From contig CAWKHF010000002.1 of the NCBI GenBank assembly GCA_963849325.1, forward strand, positions 160,001 to 224,000: 64,000 nt of DNA. Direction: 5' to 3'. Below are positions 4,612 through 39,352 of the stretch, in pieces. This stretch comes from an uncultured Planctomycetota bacterium. GTDB lineage: Bacteria; Planctomycetota; Planctomycetia; Gemmatales; Gemmataceae. Made by a program: the position numbers and the translations under genes. Within the stretch, counting starts at the first letter, position 1; each line of letters starts with the position of its first letter. A model generated the notes under the pieces. The model was not told where the DNA came from. It made no database searches and was given only the letters and a program-made list of their open reading frames with translations.

Positions 4612-4726
4612 CAGTTCTGAGTTCTGAGTTCTGAGTTCTGAGTGAAAACAGAACTCCGAACTCTTCATTCAGAACTCCGAACTCCGAACTCTTCACGCAG
4701 AACTCAGAACTCAGAACTCAGAACTG
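4612..4726. repeat. Inverted array of heptamer repeats (GTTCTGA)n...(AGAACTC)n
   Basis: Directly visible tandem heptamers in inverted arrangement. Confidence 0.85.
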
Positions 4727-13172: not shown

Positions 13173-13252
13173 AGGGAATAGGGAATAGGGAGTAGGGAAT
13201 AGGGAATAGGAGCGAGGCTTCTCTCGTTCCTATTCCCTATTCCCTATTCCCT
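13173..13252. repeat. Inverted array of heptamer repeats (GGGAATA)n...(TATTCCC)n
   Basis: Directly visible. Confidence 0.88.
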
Positions 13253-25208: not shown

Positions 25209-25282
25209 CCACCTTTCCCGTTCTGAGTGAGTTCTGAGTTCTGTGTGAAAACCGAACTCAGAACTCAGAACGGGAAAGGTGG
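25209..25282. repeat. Inverted heptamer-repeat element (GTTCTGA/AGAACTC family)
   Basis: CCACCTTTCCCGTTCTGAG...CTCAGAACGGGAAAGGTGG; same unit and central GTGAAAA as 4612-4726. Confidence 0.85.
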
Positions 25283-28083: not shown

Positions 28084-28266
28084 CAAGGATGGAGAGAGTT
28101 CCTTCTGATCCTCCTCCCAACGAATTATAAAGTGGGTTTCGCCGATTGCAAGGTCGAATTTCTTCCCTCTCCACCCTCTCCGGCAAGCTCCGGGGACAAG
28201 CTTTCGGAGCCGGCAGCGCAGAAAAGGGAGTGTCCCTCGCCCCGCGCCGCCGGCTCCGAAAGAGCC

Positions 28267-28467
28267 TCATTTGTCCTGGCGCTCGGCCCTTTCGGGCAAG
28301 ACCTTGGCCTCCTTCCGGTGTGCCCAGGCTCGACCAATGACGAGCGCTTGCCGGAGGCTGGTCACTGGGATCTTCGACTTGCTGCCGACAGTGAGTCGGC
28401 CCTCTCGGAACTCGTGCAACGCTCTCCGCACCTCGTTCGAGACTTCCGAAGTGTAGGTCCGAATCAT
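28267..28467 (-). CDS. Small DUF6496-like protein
   Basis: EVRRALHEFREGRLTVGSKSKIPVTSLRQALVIG resembles the recalled DUF6496 pattern; GGAG RBS upstream. Confidence 0.6.
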   Translation of the reverse strand: MIRTYTSEVSNEVRRALHEFREGRLTVGSKSKIPVTSLRQALVIGRAWAHRKEAKVLPERAERQDK

Positions 28468-28547
28468 GATCGCTCTCCTACCCTGTTCCGGTGGGCGATC
28501 GTGTGCGGCCGGGCCACTGCCCGGTCGAATAGTTACATTACAGATAG

Positions 28548-28562
28548 AGCAAAGAGCGTGCC
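28548..28562 (-). promoter_or_regulatory. Sigma-54-type promoter core, left copy of the 15-bp direct repeat; upstream of the DUF6496-like gene
   Basis: Minus strand reads (cc)GGCACGCTCTTTGCT, matching the TGGCACG-N4-TTGCW consensus except the first base. Confidence 0.6.
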
Positions 28563-28671
28563 GGCTTTGCCACGAAATTGCCCTCTGTTACGGAATGACG
28601 CCGGGCGGCTTTGTTACGTTTTGCCCTCTTGTTACGGAATGACGCCGGACGGAGCCGGTCTGTTACGGAAT
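28562..28671 (+). repeat. Left-end ~44-bp imperfect tandem repeat with three TGTTACGGAAT motifs
   Basis: Motif at 28586, 28630 and 28661; degenerate TGCCACGAAAT at 28568. Confidence 0.8.
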
Positions 28672-28845
28672 TACAGTAGTGTCTTAAGGTTGCGTTGCAA
28701 TGGCGCGGCTACTACTGGTTTTGCAACGCAATCGCCACTTGCAATTCAGCACGTGGAGACCTGAACGACGCGACCGAAACGGAACCATATGTAGAGGTCG
28801 GGATCGTGTTTTCCGGTTTGAGAATCGCGTCTTGTCGTGATATAC

Positions 28846-29286
28846 CTAGAGGTCTTCGTTCGGATTAGACGCTATCACATTTAGGCCAGCTGGTGCCTCG
28901 CGGGCTATTTCAGCCGGGTTGCCGAGCGTCTGCCGTACTTCCTTCATGGTAAATCCGGCAATCCGTCTTTCCAATTCCTCCACGCTAGGCAAAGTGTCTC
29001 TACTCCGCGAGCGAGTTGCCGTCAGCCACCAACCGATACCGCCAAGACCCATGCAGACCAGTAACAATGTGGCTACACCGCCGACAAGTAGGCGGGGATG
29101 CCGGAACGTCTTCCCTAACGACGTTGCTTGGCTTGTTTCTGTTGCAGGTGGATCGACCCGCACAGCCGTAGGCGGCTTCGGTACAGTTACTTGCTGTTTG
29201 CAGTTACCGCACATCACGGCTTGACCGACGCGCGACGGATCACCAGACAATCGCGTGCCACATTTCGGACAGACGAAGTAGATCAT
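28846..29286 (-). CDS. Zn-ribbon membrane-anchored hypothetical protein (possibly truncated)
   Basis: MIYFVCPKCG...CGNCK, one TM helix, GFTMKEVRQTLGNP; AGGAG RBS upstream. Confidence 0.65.
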   Translation of the reverse strand: MIYFVCPKCGTRLSGDPSRVGQAVMCGNCKQQVTVPKPPTAVRVDPPATETSQATSLGKTFRHPRLLVGGVATLLLVCMGLGGIGWWLTATRSRSRDTLPSVEELERRIAGFTMKEVRQTLGNPAEIAREAPAGLNVIASNPNEDL

Positions 29287-29638: not shown

Positions 29639-29710
29639 GCCGGGTTCGTCTATTGGTAGGACAGCGGGCTTTAGCCCCGCTTAAGAGGGGTTCGATTCCC
29701 CCACCCGGCA
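29639..29710 (+). tRNA. tRNA-like gene with UUA anticodon (putative ochre suppressor or pseudo-tRNA; Gln/Glu-like body)
   Basis: Acceptor GCCGGGT/ACCCGGC, D arm GTC/GAC, anticodon stem GCGGG/CCCGC with loop CT-TTA-GC, T arm AGGGG-TTCGATT-CCCCC (one mismatch), discriminator A. Confidence 0.8.
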
Positions 29711-29767
29711 TTTCGTTCCTTAATTTTACCAAACGTGGCAACCGCGTCAACCAGAAAGAGGCTCCCA

Positions 29768-30243
29768 TGTCTCCGCGCATCGAAGCCACCGACAAGGATG
29801 GCATTCGGTGGGTGGTTACTGGCAATAGTCATACGGACTTGGAACTTGGCATCACGGCTTTACGAGCCAGTTTTGCCCACAAAGAGGAAGTCGTACCGTC
29901 GCGCCGACGCGGACGACCGCCCAAGAATGGTGTTGCCAAAAGCAACGAAGTTGAGAAGACACGATTGGAAGCAGCCTTGTCCATCCTGCGAGCGATTCAG
30001 AAGGGTGGCGATGCCGGTGCAGATTCATCTTCGCTTCTCTCCGCAACCGGGATCGACAAGCCGGAAGCCAAGGCGCTCGGGCCGATGATGGGGATGCTCG
30101 CCAGAGTCTTACGAGATAATCGTCTGACGCAAAACAAAATCTACATCACAACTGGTTTCAGTCCTAACAAGCGATGGGTTCCGCAAGCGGAAATGAATGA
30201 TGCGATCAAGAAACTGGAAGAAACCATGAAGAATCAACTCTAA
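29768..30243 (+). CDS. Hypothetical protein with AT-hook-like RRRGRPPK motif
   Basis: ATG 29768 preceded by GAGG; open frame to TAA 30243. Confidence 0.6.
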
Positions 30244-30586: not shown

Positions 30587-31685
30587 GGAAATAAGTGTAG
30601 CAAAAAAAATCTGGATTCAAGCCTCCGGGTTTTTATTGTTGTTTTATTTATACTACAATAAATCAGAGGAGACAGCACTCGCGTTTAAGGGAAATCCCAA
30701 TGAACGCACGCGAAGAACGCGGCCTTGTTATCGCGGCCCTGTGCAAGCTGAACAAGACGCCGGACGGGTGGCTTGTCCCGTCGCAGTCGAACGAGACGAT
30801 CTACCGCGTGAACGTGGAAAAGCAGACCTGCACTTGCCCGGATCACCAAGAGGGTGGGTTCAAGTGCAAGCACCTGTACGCCGTCGAATTCACCGCCAAG
30901 CGGGAAGTCGGCACGGACGGCACCGTGACCGAGACGAAGACGCTGACCTTCACGGAGAAGGTGACGTACAAGCAGGACTGGCCCGCGTACAACCTCGCCA
31001 GAGCATCGAGAAGGACCGCCTGCAAGAACTTCTCTTCGACCTGTGCCGTGGCATCGAAGAACCCGAGCGCAGCGGCAGCGGTCGCAAGCCGCATTCGATG
31101 AAGGACATCGATCTTCGCGTCGGTGTTCAAGGTCTACAGCACGATCAGCAGCCGGCGCTTCTCTTCCGACCTGCGCGAAGCCCACGAACGCGGCTACCTG
31201 TCCAAGCCGATTCCCGGCCTGAAAGTGCCGCAGTTCTTTGAGAACGCGGCCCTCACGCCGATCCTCAAGAGCCTGATCGTCCAGAGCAGCTTGCCGCTCC
31301 GCTCGGTCGAAACGAAGTTCGCCATCGACAGCAGCGGCTTTTCGACCAGCAAGTTCGAGCGCTGGTTCGATCACAAGTACGGCGTCACGCGGCGGCGATG
31401 CACCTGGATCAAGGTCCATATCGCGTGCGGCGTCAAAACGAACGTGGTGACGGCGGTTCGCATTCTGGACAAGGACGCGGCACGACTCCCCGCAGTTCAT
31501 CCCGCTCGTCAAGGAAACGGCCAAGAACTTCACCATCGGCGAAGTGTCGGCGGACAAGGCATACGCCAGCGTGGAGAACTTTGAGACCGTCGCCGAGTGC
31601 GGCGGGACCGGCTTTATGGCCTTCAAGTCGAACACGACCGGCGCGGCCGGCGGACTGTTCCAGAAGATGTTCCACTATTTCCAGT

Positions 31686-33222
31686 CTGTACTTTCCGCGA
31701 TTTCCTTATAGTTCGCCATAAGCGATCACTCTTGGGCGTAAAGTTGCTGGCGAGGTAACGAAGCATGGCTGCGACGAGCGGGTGGACACAAGCCGGCTCC
31801 TCGAACACGATGAAGGGTAGTCAACAACCTTCGTCCTGCCAAGGAGCCGGCCATGCCATTGTCGCAACTGCCCGCCCTGCTGTCCGCCTGTTTCCCCGAC
31901 ATCACCGCCGCCCTCGACCGCCGCTCCGCCCCCCGCCTGCTCCTGCTCTTCGTCGGCGCCCTCTTCGCCAAGGGCCGACGCACCGTCACCTCCTGGTTCC
32001 GCGCCGCCGGCATCACCGCGACTTCCGCCCCGCCTACAACGCCCTGTGGGCCGCCGGCCGACGCGCCGAGGCCCTGGCCTATCGCCTGCTCTGCCTCGCC
32101 CTCAAGCCGCTGATGCGTCAGGCCCCGGCGACCACCTGCTCTTCGCCATCGACGACACGCCCACGGCCCGCTACGGCCCCGCGGTGCAGGGCGCCGGCAT
32201 CCATCACAACCCCACGCCCGGCCCGGCCGGCGAGAAGTTCGTCTACGGCCACATCTGGGTCACGCTGGCCTGGCTGGCCCGCCATCCCGCCTGGGACACC
32301 CTGGCCTTGCCGCTGCGCGCCCTCCTCTACGTCCGCGCCAAGGACGTGCCCACACTGGCCAAGCATTACCCGTGGACGTTCCGCACCAAGCTGGAATTGG
32401 CCGCCGAACTGGTCCGCTGGCTGACGCGTCTGGCTGGGCGGCCTGGGCAAGGAGCTGTGGCTGGTCGGTCGATGGCGCCTACGCCAAGCGGCCCTTCCTC
32501 AAGCCGGTGCTGGCCTTGGGCGTGGTGGTGTTCAGCCGGCTGCGCAAGGATGCCAACCTGCGGAGCTTGCCGCCGAGCGAAACGTCGGCGCGGTCAGCGG
32601 GGGCCGCTGCCGACCTACGGCAAGGAGCGGATCGACCTGGCCAAGCGTGCCGGGCAGAAGCGCGGCTGGCAGACGGTGGCGTGCGTGCAATACGGCGAGC
32701 GGGTGGTCAAGACCATCAAGACGTTCGAGGCGACCTGGCGTCCGGCCGGCGGCCGCATCCGCGTGGTGATCGTGCGCGAGGACGACGGCTGGCTGGCCTA
32801 CTTCTGCACCGACCCGGCGGTGACGGCGGCGGACGATCCTGGAGGCGATGGCGGATCGCGGCGCCATCGAGCAGTTGTTCAAGGATGTCAAGGAGGTGTG
32901 GGGAGCGGGTCAGCAGCAGGTGCGCAACGTGTACGCCAGCATCGGGGCGTTCACGGTCAACCTGGTGCTGTACAGCGTGGTGGAGGCGTGGGCGTGGGCG
33001 CGTGGCGAGGAGGAGTTGGTGGACCGGAGCCGGTCGCCGTGGGACACGGAGGAGCGTCGGCCGTCGCACGCGGACAAGCGTAAGGCGCTGCAACGGCGAA
33101 ATCCTCCGCGAAGAAATCCAGGCGGCTCTGGGGCAGCGGACAGAGCGAGAGGAGTTTCAGGATCTCGCCATCCGCCTGCTCGATCTGGCCGCATGAGTGT
33201 TAGATTTTCACGGAAAGTACAA
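31686..33222 (+). mobile_element. IS701-like insertion sequence
   Basis: Terminal IR CTGTACTTTCCG / CGGAAAGTACAA; 6-bp duplication TCCAGT at 31680-31685 and 33223-33228. Confidence 0.85.
31853..33196 (+). CDS. IS701-family transposase (multiple frameshifts)
   Basis: GRRTVTSW.RAAG, LFAIDDTPT.RYGP.VQGAG.HHNPTPG, FRTKLELA, VDGAY, RGAIEQLFKDVKE. Confidence 0.8.
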
Positions 33223-33259
33223 TCCAGTTCAAGCAAGATGAGTACATGAAGCACTACCA

Positions 33260-34781
33260 GGGTAGGCGTCTCGAAAGTTGGTGGAATTTTTGTACACAAA
33301 GAGGAATGTTGAGCGTTTGCCGGAAATCCACCCTTCACCCGGAGGCCAGCATGAAGGCTCCCCTGTCGGACCAGCAAGAAGCCAAGCCCAAAAACTGGCC
33401 CAAGCCATCGCACAGGCCAGCTACGACGACATCCTCAACATCGCCCGTACCCTCGTCGCCACCGACAACGCCTCTCTCTTCGGCGATACCGAGTTCACCG
33501 TCCGCGACCTCAGCCACCGCATCGCCGCCAAAGCCTACCGCCACCATCTTGAGCAAAAAAAAACGGCTACCAAGGAGCCAGCGTAACCTGTCCCCACTGC
33601 CACTACGCCGCCGCTTATCACGGCGACGCTGCCATCGCCTCGTCGGCCTGTGCGGCGAGCTTCGCCTGCCAACGCGCCTACTACTACTGCCGACGCTGCG
33701 GCCAAGGGCTTTTTCCCCTTCGATCAGCAAGCCGGCATCGGCCCAACGCCGCCTGACCCCCGCCGCCGAACGACTGGCGACTCTGGCCGGCGGCGTCAGC
33801 GACAGCTTCGACAAAGCCCGTCAACTTCTGCACGAGATGGCCGGCGTGCGACTGTCCGAATCGACCGTCGAACGCACCACCGAAGACGTGGGCCAACGCA
33901 TCGCCCGGCTTTTGGGCAAGGCATCACCTTTGGCCCGGATGTGCGTTGGCGTTGGCATCGGGATGCCCAGGGACGAAGCGTGGCCTACGTCACCTTGGAT
34001 GCCAGCGGCACCACGGCAGCAAGGGCCAGGCGGCCGGCACGCCGACGGCCGCATGGCCTATGTCGGCGGCGTCTACAATCCGCCGCCGCCGGAGTGGTTG
34101 CGTCCGGGCGGCCCGGCGCCGCCGCTGCAAGCGCGTTACGTCAGTGGCTTGTATTCGCTGGCGCAGATGGGACCGTTGTTGCGTTACCAGGCGACGGCGG
34201 TGGGCATGCAACCGGCGGAAGTCTGGATCGCCCTCAGCGACGGCGGCAACGGTCTGGAGGAGCTTTTGCAAAGCCATTTCAACCGTGCCGACCTGGTGGT
34301 AATTTTGGACTTTTACCATGCGGCCAGCTATGTGCAAGCGTTGGCGCGTGCCTTGTATGCCGACGAGCGAGAGCAGGCGTCGCGGCAAGCGGAGCAGTGG
34401 TGTCGTTTGTTGAAAGAGGAGGGGGGAGCGACGACGTTGGCGGTGCTGCGTGCCTGGGATTGGCCGGCGCGGAAGTCGTGGGCGTGGCGTGCGGCTTGGC
34501 AGGCGTTGGAGAGTTATTTTGCGAACAATCTGCATCGGATGGAGTATCCGGAGTATGTAGCGGAGGGCTGGCAGATTGGCAGTGGGGTAGTGGAGTCGGC
34601 GTGCAAGACGGTGGTAGGTCAGCGTTTGAAAGGTGCGGGCAAGCGTTGGGGCGAAGCGGGAGCGCATGCGTTGTGTCATGTGCGGGCTTTTACCGCAGTG
34701 AGAATGGTCAATGGGAGGCGTTCTGGGAGCGCGACTACGCGAACTGATCATTTGTTCCACCAACAAAAGTGATGCCTACCC
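33260..34781 (+). mobile_element. ISKra4-like (Mutator-type) insertion sequence
   Basis: Terminal IR GGGTAGGCGTC...GTTGGTGGAA / TTCCACCAAC...GATGCCTACCC; 9-bp duplication GCACTACCA at 33251-33259 and 34782-34790. Confidence 0.85.
33351..34747 (+). CDS. ISKra4-family transposase (A9 run near 33555, possible programmed frameshift; other frameshifts)
   Basis: LSDGGNG, ILDFYHA, RMEYPEY..EGWQIGSGVVESACK.VV.QRLKGAG.RW. Confidence 0.82.
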
Positions 34782-35025
34782 GCACTACCATCAGCGGAGC
34801 AACGTCGAAAGCACCTTCTCAACGGTTAAGCGGAAGTTCGGCGACTACATTCGCAGCAAGCTGGAAACGGCGATGGTCAACGAGGACTTGCGCAAGTTCC
34901 TCTGTCACAACCTCTGCTGCCTGATTTAAGAAGAGTGCGAGTCGGGAATCGATGCGATCTTCTGGCCGGACGCCAGCCAGTGCAGCTTGAAGTCAACCGT
35001 CCGGTCTGATACGATTTAACCAAAC

Positions 35026-35063
35026 TGCTACGGAATCAATGGTTTAAGATTGATTCCGTAGCA
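35026..35063. repeat. Right-end inverted pair of TGCTACGGAAT motifs
   Basis: TGCTACGGAATCAAT-ggtttaag-ATTGATTCCGTAGCA. Confidence 0.85.
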
Positions 35064-35075
35064 AAGAGCGTGCCA
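35060..35075 (-). promoter_or_regulatory. Sigma-54 -24/-12 promoter consensus, right copy of the direct repeat
   Basis: Minus strand TGGCACGCTCTTTGCT = TGGCACG-N4-TTGCT. Confidence 0.65.
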
Positions 35076-35095: not shown

Positions 35096-38000
35096 TCATT
35101 TCGGGAGCCGGATCAGCGTGTAATGCGCCTCGGCAGGATAGAAGTCGCCGCCGCCAGAAGCAAGGTTCTTCAGCCGCAATTCGTACACGAACCCTGTCCG
35201 CATCTCGGCGAGTTTCAGCGTCACGCGCCGCGCATCGGCGGCGACGGAAACGTCCGTCACTTTCTCTGTGCGGCGATCGCGGTCGGGACCGCCGTAGGCC
35301 GGCGTCGCCTCGCGGCGGTAGGACTGGAGCGCATAACTGTCGCTTCGCCCGGCCCGCTCGCGGTCGATCGGCCGGAAGAAGTCGAGGACGAAACCGTCGC
35401 GCGTCGCCCGTACCTCGGCGATGCCACAGGGTAATTTGTCGGGCTGGACCTGGACGCGGACGATTTCACCGACGTTGTTGCCGGCGCCCCAGCCGCTGTC
35501 GCGGATGCTGCCGACGTACAACTCGCCGCGCGGCGACACGGCGCAGACCAGCGGACCCAGAAAACCGCGCTGCGGGTCCGTCGGTGGGATGCTGAGCGGG
35601 TACGCCGCTCCCTGGAAGGTGTCGCCGACACGCTGGAGCGTCATGCGGATCAGCCGCCGCGTGTCGTACTCGCAGCCGAGAAGGTGTCCTTCCAGCGGGC
35701 CGAAGACGTCGCGGCCGAGCTTCGCGCGCAGCTCCTTCGGGGTGTACAGGAAACAGATGCCGTTGACACTGCGCGTCCACGGATGCGGGATGTCGATGGC
35801 CGATGGCGTGCGCGGCGGCGCCGGCTTGCCGCGGTCGAGGTAGTTAATGAAGCCGAAGTGGGTGTCCGGCCGAACGTGGTTCAGTTCGTTGAACGGCTTG
35901 TAATTGCCCTGGTTGTCGGTGACGAACAGTTCGCCGGCGCGGTCCAGCGCCAGGCCCATTGGGAAGCGATGGCCGGCGGAGATCGACATGGGCGCGAACC
36001 GTCGCGGATCGTCCGTCGTCGGCGGACGCGGCACCAGGCGCAGGACGTCGCCATGAAACCGAGCGGCGGCCGGCGAGCGTTTGTCCTGCTGGCAGGGGAT
36101 GCCGAGGAAGTATTCGCCGCGCTCGTTTTGCGGCAGGCCCACGGCCCAGTCATGGTAGTCCGGGCTGTAACCCCAGCCGGAGGCAATTACCTCAACCCGT
36201 CGGCCCGACGGGCTCGCGTCGCCCAGGCGCAGCACGGCATACTTGGCGCTGACATCGACGTAACCGGGTCCGGCGTGGACGCCATACGGCGCCGGCAGGC
36301 CGTCGGCCAGAAGTCGCAAACGGTCCTCGTCGCCATCGCCATCCGTGTCCATCGCCTCGTAGACCTGGCCTTTCAGCGAGCAGAAGACGAGTCGGCCGTC
36401 CGGCCTCCAGGACAGCCCTGTCGGCATGATTTCGGACGACAGAGGGAGCCGTTCGCCGACGAAGCCGGGGGCGACCTCCACGGGTTCGCCCTTGCGGACA
36501 ACGACCGGAGGCTGCGGCACCTCGGCGAAGCGATCGACGGGAACCTCCGACTGATAGTACACACGGGCACCAACCGTCCCCTTTGCGTCGGGGGCCAGCA
36601 CGATGTTCGTGGCATCGTCCGTGAAACGTGCGTCCATTGGCTTCACGAGGACGATGCGGCTGGCGAAGCGATCGCCGAGGCGGATGGTGCGGCCATCGGC
36701 CGAGCGCATCGCTTTCCGCGCCGCTTCCGGGGCCAGCAGGCGCAATCGCACTTCGGTCTTGGCGGGAACGCCCTCCACCGATAGTTCCTCGGCAAACCCC
36801 GCAGCCAGCGGAGTCAACTTGCGACGGACTCGGAGCACCACCGTTTTCGACCCTTCGCCGACCGGGGCGGGGACATCAAACTTCAGCCGAGAACTCACCA
36901 CGACGCCGGGGCCATCCGTCTGCCAGGCATCGGCCTCCGCGACGAACTGGCCGAGCGCCTGGGCCGATAGCACACCGTCGGCGCTCGCAGCGACAGGTCC
37001 GGCCCGGCCAGCCCCGTGTCGAGGACCGTTGTCCCCGCCAGTTCCCAGAACCACGCTTTGCCCTTGGTCCGCTGGCGGGCGGTATCGCCGACGGTCCACC
37101 GGACCAGGCTGCCGGAACCCAGGTCGAGCAGTACGTTGTGCCGGTTCGCTAGGCCGGCGAGGAACGGTTGGAGCCACATTTTCCCGTCCTGCTGCACGAT
37201 GTCGGTCAGCAGGACCGGCTCGGCGCCGGCATCGTTGCCGGACTGCCGGAGAGTGCGGATCGGGTTGGGCAGCGGCGGCTCGAAGCCGGGCAGGTTGAGG
37301 ACGTGCCACACGGCGGCGAGCTGATCGTCCAGCTTGCCATCGAGTACCCCGGACACCGGAATTTGCACCGACGGCATCTCCATGCGCGGCACGATCCGCG
37401 CCGGGTTGCGCACCCAGCGGTCGAACCACGGTCGGCGGATACGGTGATCGAGCTGCGACAGATCCGGCCCGCGGGCGTTGAGCGGAGCGCTCGGCGGCAG
37501 CACACGGCCGACCTGGTGGCAGCTGGTGCAGCCGAAGCCGTCGCTGGAGAGGAGCCGGCCGCCGGCAAGGGTATAGCGGTCCTGCCGAGACGGGTCCGTC
37601 GGCGGAGGCAAAGCCGTCTCGCGCGGGGGCACGCGGTCGGTGTCGATCAGGTGGCGCACCAGCGCCTGCAACTCCTCGTCCGCGAGGGGGAAGCGCGGCA
37701 TGCGCACGTGGAGATAAGAGCGATGCGTCTCGCCCCGGCGGACGATCGCATCGGCGAGAGCCGAGTCGGTGAGCTTGTCGCCGACGCTGTTGAGGGCGGG
37801 CGGCGTCAGCGCAGGCACCAGGGGAGCAAGGTCGGGATAGCGGCGGGCCACGGCGGTCAGCTTGTCGGCCAGCAGCGGCGGCAGCAGCGGGATCGTCTCG
37901 CGCGTCCCTTCCCGCGCGTGACAGGCGAGGCAGTTGTGCTCGGCCAGAATGAGCCGGCCGTCGCGCCGCGGCGAACGGGTGCCAGCGTAGTAGTTGCGCA

Positions 38001-39352
38001 GGGCCAGGGCATCGCCTTTGTTCAGCCGGTAGCCGGGACGCTGTTTCGCCGCCTCGGGTGTACCGGCGCAGGAGTGGTCCCAGTTGCTCCGCTCGCGCAG
38101 CCGCGGCACCGAGCGAACTGCCCTGTCCGGTTCGGCGCCGGGCAGTCGATGGCAGGCGCCGCAGCGGAAGCTGCTCGACCAATTTTCCGCCCTCATCGCC
38201 TTGCTCGCCGCGGCCGCGAGGAGTAAAGTCCGGCTTAACCTCTCCCGTTTTCTGGGCGGCGAGGAAGAGGGATAGGGAAGTCCGCTCGTCGTCCGACAGC
38301 GCGAACACCGGCATGTGGTGATCGCGGTTGAGGCGAGCCGGGTCGGCGAGCCAAACGGCGAAGAAACCGGCAGGCCGTTTGTCCGCAACGTGCGTCAGGT
38401 CGCCGCCGCCGAGCCAGCCGCTGGCGCCGAGGTCGCGCCAGGTATGGCAGGCCAGACAGCCCAGCGTCAGGAACAGGCGCTCGCCGGTTTGGGCGTCGGG
38501 CTTTGGCGCCTTCTTCCGCGGCTTTTTCTCCGGCGGAGGAGCAGGCGTGGGACGCTCCTCCGACCGCGCCGAAAGGAGCCAGTCGGCGATGGCTTCCGCC
38601 TGCGCTTCCGACAAGCCCAGCGCCGGCATCCGTCGCGGCGATCGTTCGTCCGGCGCGGACGAGACGTGCTCGCCGGCGATCAGCCAGCGGACCAGCCAGC
38701 CGCGCGACAGATTTCCTCGCAAGCGATCCAGCGCCGGCGCCGGCCGAGACGGCTGCTGCTCGCCGTGACAGCGGCCGCAACGCAGCACACGGGCGAGCAG
38801 TTGGCCGCGCTCGTAATCGCGGCCGATTGTCTTCTCACGTGGATGAAACAGGGAGCGCGACGGCATCGGCTCCAGTCCAAAGTCGGGACCGGACCAGAGA
38901 AGCATCAGTCGGGCGTCCTTCTCCGTCCGCCGGAAGGACAGCTCCAACGGGTGATAATCGGCGCTGAGCCGCACCGCGGCCGATGTCAACCAATCCTGTC
39001 GCACATTCTGGCGAGGCACGATCGCCTGTCCGGCGATTTTCAGCTCCACCTCTCCGGTAGCGAACAGGAAGAAGTGGTACTCGCCGCGCGTGGTGACAAG
39101 CAGATGTCCCTGCCAGCTTGCCCGGAACTCGCCTGCGACCAGGCGCGGATCGGGCGGCGTCTCGCCCCAGTGGAAGGCCGGTTGGGGATCGAGCCGGATC
39201 ACCGTATGGCCCTGGCCATCGCGGAAGTTCGCCAGCAGTCCAGGCAGGAAAGGCTCGTCATCGTCCGCCCCTTCGGCGGCGAGCGCCGGCGATCCGATCA
39301 CCAGCACGGCCAGCACGATGAGCCGAGTGAGGATACGCAGCAATCCAGGCAT
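35096..39352 (-). CDS. Large secreted multiheme c-type cytochrome with PA14-like N-terminus and C-terminal beta-propeller; frameshifts near 38170 and 36970
   Basis: Signal peptide, FRASWQGHL (PA14-like), five CxxCH (CGRCH, CLACH, CGACH, CLACH, CTSCH), GHRFPMG/TDNQGN propeller. Confidence 0.8.
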   Translation of the reverse strand: MPGLLRILTRLIVLAVLVIGSPALAAEGADDDEPFLPGLLANFRDGQGHTVIRLDPQPAFHWGETPPDPRLVAGEFRASWQGHLLVTTRGEYHFFLFATGEVELKIAGQAIVPRQNVRQDWLTSAAVRLSADYHPLELSFRRTEKDARLMLLWSGPDFGLEPMPSRSLFHPREKTIGRDYERGQLLARVLRCGRCHGEQQPSRPAPALDRLRGNLSRGWLVRWLIAGEHVSSAPDERSPRRMPALGLSEAQAEAIADWLLSARSEERPTPAPPPEKKPRKKAPKPDAQTGERLFLTLGCLACHTWRDLGASGWLGGGDLTHVADKRPAGFFAVWLADPARLNRDHHMPVFALSDDERTSLSLFLAAQKTGEVKPDFTPRGRGEQGDEGGKLVEQLPLRRLPSTARRRTGQGSSLGAAAARAEQLGPLLRRYTRGGETASRLPAEQRRCPGPAQLLRWHPFAAARRPAHSGRAQLPRLSRAGRDARDDPAAAAAAGRQADRRGPPLSRPCSPGACADAARPQQRRRQAHRLGSRRCDRPPGRDASLLSPRAHAALPPRGRGVAGAGAPPDRHRPRAPARDGFASADGPVSAGPLYPCRRPAPLQRRLRLHQLPPGRPCAAAERSAQRPRAGSVAARSPYPPTVVRPLGAQPGADRAAHGDAVGANSGVRGTRWQAGRSARRRVARPQPARLRAAAAQPDPHSPAVRQRCRRRAGPADRHRAAGRENVAPTVPRRPSEPAQRTARPGFRQPGPVDRRRYRPPADQGQSVVLGTGGDNGPRHGAGRAGPVAASADGVLSAQALGQFVAEADAWQTDGPGVVVSSRLKFDVPAPVGEGSKTVVLRVRRKLTPLAAGFAEELSVEGVPAKTEVRLRLLAPEAARKAMRSADGRTIRLGDRFASRIVLVKPMDARFTDDATNIVLAPDAKGTVGARVYYQSEVPVDRFAEVPQPPVVVRKGEPVEVAPGFVGERLPLSSEIMPTGLSWRPDGRLVFCSLKGQVYEAMDTDGDGDEDRLRLLADGLPAPYGVHAGPGYVDVSAKYAVLRLGDASPSGRRVEVIASGWGYSPDYHDWAVGLPQNERGEYFLGIPCQQDKRSPAAARFHGDVLRLVPRPPTTDDPRRFAPMSISAGHRFPMGLALDRAGELFVTDNQGNYKPFNELNHVRPDTHFGFINYLDRGKPAPPRTPSAIDIPHPWTRSVNGICFLYTPKELRAKLGRDVFGPLEGHLLGCEYDTRRLIRMTLQRVGDTFQGAAYPLSIPPTDPQRGFLGPLVCAVSPRGELYVGSIRDSGWGAGNNVGEIVRVQVQPDKLPCGIAEVRATRDGFVLDFFRPIDRERAGRSDSYALQSYRREATPAYGGPDRDRRTEKVTDVSVAADARRVTLKLAEMRTGFVYELRLKNLASGGGDFYPAEAHYTLIRLPK

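Follow-up and report, generated by a model that had tools for sequence, protein, structure and literature searches.

A direct repeat of 15 bp that bounds a nested interval of 6.5 kb in the analysed stretch of DNA (64,000 nt, hereafter the window, whose positions are used throughout) marks the two ends of a dead transposon of ~3.4 kb (~3.43 kb without nested insertions), which carries a SWIM + DDE_Tnp_1 transposase pseudogene, is distantly IS5-like, and very probably lies in the former sigma-54 promoter of a small DUF6496-like gene. The 15 bp are composed of a 9-bp target-site duplication, GAGCGTGCC, and 6 bp shared by the host -12 box and the right inverted repeat (IR) tip, from which 3 nt are missing. 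We consider it likely that an ordinary insertion into a genuine sigma-54 promoter took place, that the likeness between tip and -12 box together with the loss of 3 nt gave rise to the 15-bp repeat, and that the element decayed later.

The 15-mer AGCAAAGAGCGTGCC is present at 28548-28562 and 35060-35074, as the initial annotation had reported, and no third occurrence was found on either strand of the whole 8,163,468-bp genome. A bare exact direct repeat of this length is unremarkable in the window, which contains 45 distinct exact direct-repeat pairs of at least 15 bp (~5.8 in Markov-1 simulations); the pair is meaningful because of its position, as the copies meet the transposon ends. The end of the left copy abuts the conserved left tip GGCTTTGC, which starts at 28563; at the other end, the right copy and the conserved right tip overlap. 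The six extra bases, AGCAAA, are host DNA on the left side (promoter TTTGCT on the minus strand) and conserved IR tip at the right junction (...GTAGCAAA-, without the last 3 nt of ...GCAAAGCC). The earlier suggestion that the element end rebuilds the -12 box is correct in spirit, because the right copy takes its TTGC from the IR tip. Given the position of the left tip, the remaining part of the repeat has the length typical of duplications in the SWIM + DDE_Tnp_1 family (9 bp, rarely 10):

28554-28562, no strand assigned: left copy of the 9-bp target-site duplication GAGCGTGCC, corresponding to promoter positions -25 to -17 on the minus strand and abutting the left tip
35066-35074, no strand assigned: right copy of the 9-bp target-site duplication GAGCGTGCC, matching the left copy at 9 of 9 positions

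Between these two copies, the following parts of the outer transposon were recognized:

28563-28679, plus strand: left end, with the IR tip GGCTTTGCCACGAAAT followed by reiterated subterminal sites; the tip GGCTTTGC is common to 29 relatives
28584-28599, 28628-28643 and 28659-28674, plus strand: subterminal CTGTTACGGAAT-type sites of the left end
28562-28605 and 28606-28649: 44-bp units of the left end
28846-29286, minus strand: passenger ORF of 146 aa with a CxxC...CxxC N-terminus and a hydrophobic segment, no family match
29639-29710, plus strand: passenger tRNA gene with anticodon UUA (ARAGORN; Rfam tRNA 52.7 bits; anticodon loop CTTTAGC)
29767-30243, plus strand: passenger ORF of ~158 aa (196 aa from an upstream TTG), no family match
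30700-34929, plus strand: outer transposase pseudogene, SWIM zinc finger + DDE_Tnp_1, in the pieces 30700-31684, 33228-33259 and 34791-34929
35028-35065, plus strand: right end, with the hairpin CTACGGAATCAA-N10-TTGATTCCGTAG followed by the IR tip ...GTAGCAAA(G), which is without the last 3 nt of the canonical ...GCAAAGCC

The outer transposase pseudogene has the N-terminal SWIM finger and C-terminal DDE_Tnp_1 domain of the family and is 41-64% identical to P0001, an intact relative of 509 aa encoded in the same genome, which was used as the reference for identifying lesions. In the pseudogene, the reading frame shifts near 31000, 31090 and 31490; in addition, there is a TGA at 31099, and a TAA lies in frame at 34927. 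P0001 itself matches DDE_Tnp_1 (PF01609, 70.6 bits) and SWIM in Pfam, and its best NCBIfam model is 'IS5 family transposase' (NF033579), with 93.3 bits, which does not reach the cut-off of 140. With regard to the termini, the left tip GGCTTTGCCACG is of the canonical GGCTTTG.../...CAAAGCC type, and the right end reads ...GTAGCAAAG followed by AGCGTGCC, 3 nt short. About seven further diverged family copies are present in the host genome; a search of the same genome for further copies of the non-coding ends of this element detected none, only diverged transposase relatives.

Two insertion sequences (ISs) are nested in the outer transposase gene, separated by outer-transposase codons (FKQDEYMKHY):

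31685-33223, plus strand: nested IS701-like IS of 1539 bp (NF049999, 102 bits, below the cut-off of 170), flanked by the duplication CCAG at 31681-31684 and 33224-33227
33260-34781, plus strand: nested ISKra4-like IS of 1522 bp with IRs GGGTAGGC... (NF033572, 194 bits; ISLre2 only 36 bits), flanked by the 9-bp duplication GCACTACCA at 33251-33259 and 34782-34790

These findings bear on the identity first proposed for the element, namely that it is Mutator-like (TnGBS/ISLre2-type), targets RpoN-bound DNA, and left a 15-bp (or degenerate 16-17-bp) duplication of the promoter core. Such a model may draw on the fact that the duplicated 15-mer is a perfect sigma-54 core, on the presence of an ISKra4-like transposase inside the interval, and on the promoter targeting documented for TnGBS, ISLre2 and ISKra4-group elements, which concerns sigma-A promoters (PMC3942029). 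However, the repeats bound a SWIM + DDE_Tnp_1 transposon and not an element with a Mutator-like (p-MULT) transposase; the Mutator-like signal in the interval is confined to the ISKra4-like IS, an insertion into the outer transposase ORF that has IRs and a 9-bp duplication of its own. The gene of this nested IS is probably what had been taken for the transposase of the element.

The length of the duplication was examined in relatives. Among the genome_contigs loci, 37 of 58 were examined and 15 were resolved, all with tips GGCTTTGCA.../...TGCAAAGCC and exact 9-bp duplications, the only length tried in this set. A further 80 metagenome loci, 57-84% identical to the DDE fragment of this element, were analysed with lengths of 6-16 bp allowed; the 14 that could be resolved had the same tips (GGCTTTG.../...CAAAGCC) and duplications of 9 bp, or of 10 bp in four cases. 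Overall, all 29 resolved relatives, many of them archaeal, have these tips and 9-10-bp duplications. The TG...CA boundaries at 28568/35063 considered earlier are thus wrong, and a duplication of 15 or 16-17 bp is not borne out: none of the 29 exceeds 10 bp. A 15-bp duplication as a property of a subfamily was also considered and rejected, as none longer than 10 bp appeared in the 80 metagenome loci, where lengths of 6-16 bp were allowed. Within the host genome, four elements of a 'CTTTGC-type' provided seven termini, all of which read NN-CTTTGC[ACT]ACG; copy C10 has a perfect 17-bp IR with flanks CGATGGGGC/CGATGGAGC, and C6b, located head-to-tail with C6a, has the exact 9-bp duplication GCATGGCGG. 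A pattern search in 252 genomes of the host family detected three loci with ends of the same ACGGAAT subtype as this element (L185, L186 and L187), whose canonical tip is ...CATTCCGTAGCAAAGCC (also given as ...CCGTAGCAAAGCC) directly followed by the flank.

P0001 relatives in public genomes come mainly from methanogenic archaea and Acidobacteriota, and more than 6,400 database proteins share the SWIM + DDE_Tnp_1 architecture, named only 'transposase'. Family elements are 2.3-5.5 kb long and contain passenger ORFs and often tRNA genes. We also observed a C5-type transposase branch (L041-L098), 42-54% identical to a copy in the host genome and mostly from Methanothrix/Methanoregula-type archaea and Acidobacteriota. 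Because the archaeal and Acidobacteriota copies of this branch share nearly identical IR tips (GGCTTTGCACGTAA) across hosts, a wide cross-domain spread of one transposon family is implied. In two cases, elements are arranged as head-to-tail tandems with exactly one 9-bp duplication between them (C6b-C6a, at C6 ~442144-448428, L004/L006; and L071:2572-2600 on a Methanothrix contig), which could reflect either re-insertion into the element's own duplicated target or dimer formation.

tRNA genes are a repeated cargo of this family (Rfam tRNA 40-63 bits), being found in ~8 of roughly 30 distinct elements examined. In addition to the tRNA at 29639-29710 (plus strand) of the window, they are located at L123:1847-1928 and 2099-2172, L129:5175-5245, L141:5068-5140, L066:934-1020 and 1068-1139, L051:6780-6870, L161:2222-2312, L006:2823-2895 (minus strand) and L003:55-128. 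Where the ends of an element were resolved, its tRNA genes have the same strand as the transposase gene and precede the conserved part of the latter by 130-1000 nt. The anticodons vary (Thr, Asp, Ala, Leu, Ser, Trp and others). Two unrelated cargo tRNAs, that of this element and one of L123, have the anticodon UUA and would be predicted to decode the stop codon UAA. The UUA tRNA of this element is unlike any of the 92 predicted host tRNAs, the best match being 55 of 72 positions. The idea that the tRNA(UUA) of this element serves to read through the TAA of its transposase in a programmed manner was considered and rejected: the intact L123 transposase has Gln at this position, and the transposase gene in the window is otherwise frameshifted.

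On the host side, the features relevant to the promoter are as follows:

28267-28467, minus strand: DUF6496-like small gene of 66 aa that the promoter would serve (PF20106, E 3.8e-4, below cut-off; homologues present)
28548-28563, minus strand: gene-proximal sigma-54-type core promoter CGGCACGCTCTTTGCT, with GG at -24 and GC at -12, 10 of 11 consensus positions
35060-35075, minus strand: hybrid perfect -24/-12 box TGGCACGCTCTTTGCT, whose -24 half comes from host DNA/duplication and whose -12 half (TTTGCT) comes from the right IR tip

Read on the minus strand, the right copy with one flank base (TGGCACGCTCTTTGCT) agrees with all 11 specified positions of TGGCAC-N5-TTGCW, and the left copy (CGGCACGCTCTTTGCT) with 10 of 11. 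In the gene-proximal box, 28548-28562 is host DNA and the left tip begins at 28563 (position -26); the GC doublet is at 28549-28550, and the predicted transcription start is near 28537, ~70 nt before the ATG at 28467. The box is at -96 from this ATG and oriented towards the gene. The empty site, like the right copy, would score 11/11 with GG-N10-GC spacing, a score that did not occur in 2000 shuffles of the 223-nt region upstream, and the 10/11 of the gene-proximal copy was reached by 3 of 2000. The host has rpoN (PF04552, 196.6 bits) and 14 genes for bacterial enhancer-binding proteins (bEBPs) with full-length PF00158 (Sigma54_activat) matches of at least 199 bits each. Genome-wide, TGGCAC-N5-TTGCW occurs at 21 sites, and controls with the wrong spacings N2, N3, N4, N6, N7, N8 and N9 gave 8, 6, 3, 4, 6, 7 and 4 sites, respectively, so that the consensus match is beyond chance. 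A same-strand gene start lies 14-141 nt downstream of ~12-14 of the 21 perfect sites according to a crude ORF call.

It is possible in principle that the -24/-12 match is fortuitous, that the site was never a functional sigma-54 promoter and that the DUF6496 gene is driven by another promoter. About 5 of the 21 perfect genomic matches would be expected from the wrong-spacing controls, and the Pfam score of the gene (21.2 bits for PF20106) is below the cut-off of 24. However, apart from the 11/11 score, the correct orientation, the distance of 96 nt to the ATG and the presence of rpoN and 14 bEBP genes, all five DUF6496 homologues examined in other genera have a box of 9-10 of 11 at -67 to -96, that is, within the same 30-nt zone; each of these scores was reached by 5-112 of 2000 shuffles, and the opposite strands scored lower in four of the five. 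A fortuitous match is therefore improbable. Because the consensus is perfect, rpoN and bEBPs are present, enrichment is restricted to N5 and boxes are found at 5/5 homologues, the pre-insertion site was very probably, judging from sequence comparison, the sigma-54 promoter of the DUF6496-like gene. In this respect the initial annotation is supported, as is its view that one copy would remain for the gene and another point into the element, the first being a near-intact core promoter and the second a perfect one. Transcription from the hybrid box would run antisense to the transposase; its predicted start, near 35049, falls within the right-end hairpin. Both promoter copies may be transcriptionally active. 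If there was an upstream activator site, the insertion would have left it 6.5 kb away from the gene-proximal copy and beside the hybrid copy, and for this reason the DUF6496-like gene may have lost its regulation.

Several further observations were made in the neighborhood. A 19-bp inverted repeat (95% complementary, 24-nt spacer) is located at 28201-28262, just 3' of the DUF6496-like gene; it has weak DNA matches at C6:136090, C2:110965 and C12:500405 and may be a dispersed terminator-like repeat. On the other side, an ORF of 1418 aa with PA14 and cytochrome c domains (35096-39352, minus strand) is open throughout, and at codons ~400-800 its G+C peak is at codon position 1 rather than 3 and its translation is an Arg/Pro/Ala-rich nonsense sequence, suggesting two compensating frameshifts due to either a pseudogene or an assembly error. 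Nine of 10 genomes of the same genus contain orthologues of this ORF, with 80-86% identity across the last 400 aa. Short tandem heptamer arrays of AGTTCTG/CAGAACT type and GGGAATA type are present at 4613-4712, 25228-25268 and 13173-13243 in the list of exact repeats.

Whether insertion into RpoN-bound DNA is a habit of the family was examined by scoring empty sites for resemblance to -24/-12 boxes, using 30 others (28 distinct junctions in other genomes, together with C10 and C6). Their mean score was 6.73 of 11 with a maximum of 8, indistinguishable from shuffle means of 6.1-6.9, and this site scores 11/11. Under this scoring, which is of sigma-54 type only, insertions did not cluster at promoters: 0 of the 30 sites is -24/-12-like. 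Twelve of the 30 are located in archaeal contigs, and archaea are not known to have sigma-54. RpoN targeting as a family property, as had been claimed at first, is rejected because the 30 other sites score no better than shuffles and include 12 archaeal ones, and one insertion cannot establish targeting for this copy. Considering also the SWIM + DDE_Tnp_1 identity of the outer element and the duplications of at most 10 bp in its relatives, the Mutator-like targeting model appears extremely improbable. A surface-level literature search on sigma-54 targeting by IS elements, on the SWIM/IS5 family and on suppressor-tRNA passengers returned nothing relevant. As a separate observation, the left flanks of seven archaeal loci (L045, L047, L053, L071, L075, L084 and L093) contain, at 4-12 bp from the duplication, A/T-rich TAWAWAGGT-like boxes reminiscent of archaeal TATA boxes. 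A tendency of the archaeal relatives to insert near TATA boxes was considered and rejected, as the signal was not above the non-coding background (median control fraction reaching the observed value 0.31, by a crude A/T count).

Another explanation would make the six extra bases a cause rather than a coincidence: the transposase might prefer targets beside sequences that resemble its own IR tip (NN-CTTTGC...), and the -12 box CTTTGCT would have served as a decoy. The two independent head-to-tail tandems, C6b-C6a and L071, whose tips are one 9-bp duplication apart, are consistent with this idea, although re-insertion into a duplicated target or dimer formation could also explain them. Flanks match the opposite tip of their own element at 7.07 of 14 positions on average, compared with 6.54 +/- 0.15 after permutation (0 of 2000 permutations reach the observed value), and IR-like or binding-site-like strings are present in the flanks of L101, L111, L112, L129 and L141. 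However, the signal is small and comes from few loci (L071 with 14/14; L129, L141 and L093 with 9-10 of 14), most sites showing nothing; none of the 30 other sites is a -24/-12 box, and the register here fits the tandem geometry only if the same loss of 3 nt is assumed, being otherwise off by 3 nt. We thus regard such a preference as unlikely, though not negligible. A more speculative and quite improbable extension is that, as the tip GGCTTTGC mimics the -12 box and the transposase is biased towards tip-like sequence, sigma-54 promoters would be natural decoys, and the junction could evolve, through the 3-nt loss, into an activator-responsive antisense promoter. If true, this would amount to a host-signal-dependent brake on the transposase.

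The ordinary insertion that we favor probably proceeded as follows. A transposon of ~3.4 kb would have inserted by cut-and-staggered-join transposition into the sigma-54 core, 96 nt upstream of the DUF6496-like gene, with the staggered 9-bp target GAGCGTGCC, which is GGCACGCTC on the promoter strand at positions -25 to -17. Since this duplication holds the -24 element and the -12 element was on the gene side, the core promoter next to the gene would have stayed nearly intact. The second copy of the -24 element, at the other junction, would have met the right IR tip ...GCAAAGCC (GGCTTTGC on the other strand), which contains a -12-like TTGC. A tip 3 nt shorter than the canonical one would place this TTGC at the correct N5 spacing, extend the junction identity from 9 to 15 bp, and create a second, hybrid and perfect -24/-12 box aimed into the element; the striking 15-bp repeat would thus be due to a coincidental similarity of the IR tip to the -12 box. 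At least three frameshifts, a nonsense codon and the two nested IS insertions would have followed during decay. A point against this account is that the right tip is not canonical, so that a 3-nt loss or a conversion has to be assumed. Loss of 3 nt at the joint of tip and duplication seems the most economical assumption, as the element has several other indels, and a short conversion from the left copy is the alternative. The account also leaves to chance an improbable coincidence, namely that, of perhaps a few dozen sigma-54 promoters, one was hit in the very register in which the tip can replace the -12 box.

On the gene strand, the pre-insertion sequence would be ...AAGCATGGCACGCTCTTTGCTCTAT..., which is the same under the 3-nt loss, a 15-bp duplication, or a duplication of CGTGCCATG with a left-side deletion. 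An unoccupied site is predicted to read ...AGCAAAGAGCGTGCCATGC... / ...ATAGAGCAAAGAGCGTGCCATGCTTGG..., with a single copy of the 15-mer. Neither a second copy of exactly this element nor an unoccupied allele was found among the genomes searched. DNA comparison of the left flank and the right end with 40 relatives yielded no usable match to an empty site; by synteny, large-gene orthologues were detected in 9 of 10 same-genus genomes, with different downstream content in each. Exact 16-mer matches in genus g96 were rejected as candidates, being conserved host coding sequence and not element ends. The left flank was also examined for remnants of an older copy, and no significant local alignment to the element was obtained on either strand.

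For the finding as originally posed, little has changed: a promoter contains a single old insertion, which is dead. The comparative evidence suggests that DUF6496-type small proteins may be sigma-54 controlled across this planctomycete family. In addition, a very large uncurated SWIM + DDE_Tnp_1 family of Bacteria and Archaea now has its termini, architecture and duplication length established, and its repeated tRNA cargo, in two cases with a stop-codon-reading anticodon, is a noteworthy by-product.

Compared with known systems, the element recalls TnGBS/ISLre2/ISKra4-group elements in the idea of promoter-directed insertion and in the ISKra4-like IS physically present in the interval. The insertion sites of that group are 15-17 bp before the -35 box of sigma-A promoters (PMC3942029). 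Its members differ from the present element, whose transposase belongs to another superfamily, whose insertion lies inside a sigma-54 core, and whose relatives have targets that are not -24/-12-like. Features in common with IS5/DDE_Tnp_1 elements (IS4/IS5 superfamily) are the PF01609 catalytic domain, terminal IRs and a fixed short duplication of 9 bp, and plasmid IS5-family genes are 26-27% identical over the DDE part. However, with 93 bits against the cut-off of 140, P0001 is not a curated IS5 member, and unlike IS5 this family has an N-terminal SWIM finger, reiterated subterminal sites, a right-end hairpin, passenger ORFs and often tRNA genes. Several IS families are known to form hybrid promoters between an IS end and its flank with sigma-70 -35/-10 elements, and the present junction resembles these promoters in that the IR tip gives one half (TTGC) and the flank the other (the host -24). 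In contrast to these sigma-70 hybrids, the box here is a putative sigma-54 -24/-12 promoter that would be directed inward, antisense to the transposase, and would depend on the 3-nt shortening of the tip. Finally, the site resembles canonical sigma-54 promoters in its perfect consensus, GG-N10-GC spacing, orientation and distance to the gene, and in that the host encodes RpoN and bEBPs; it differs from them in that any upstream activator site has been 6.5 kb from the gene-proximal copy since the insertion.
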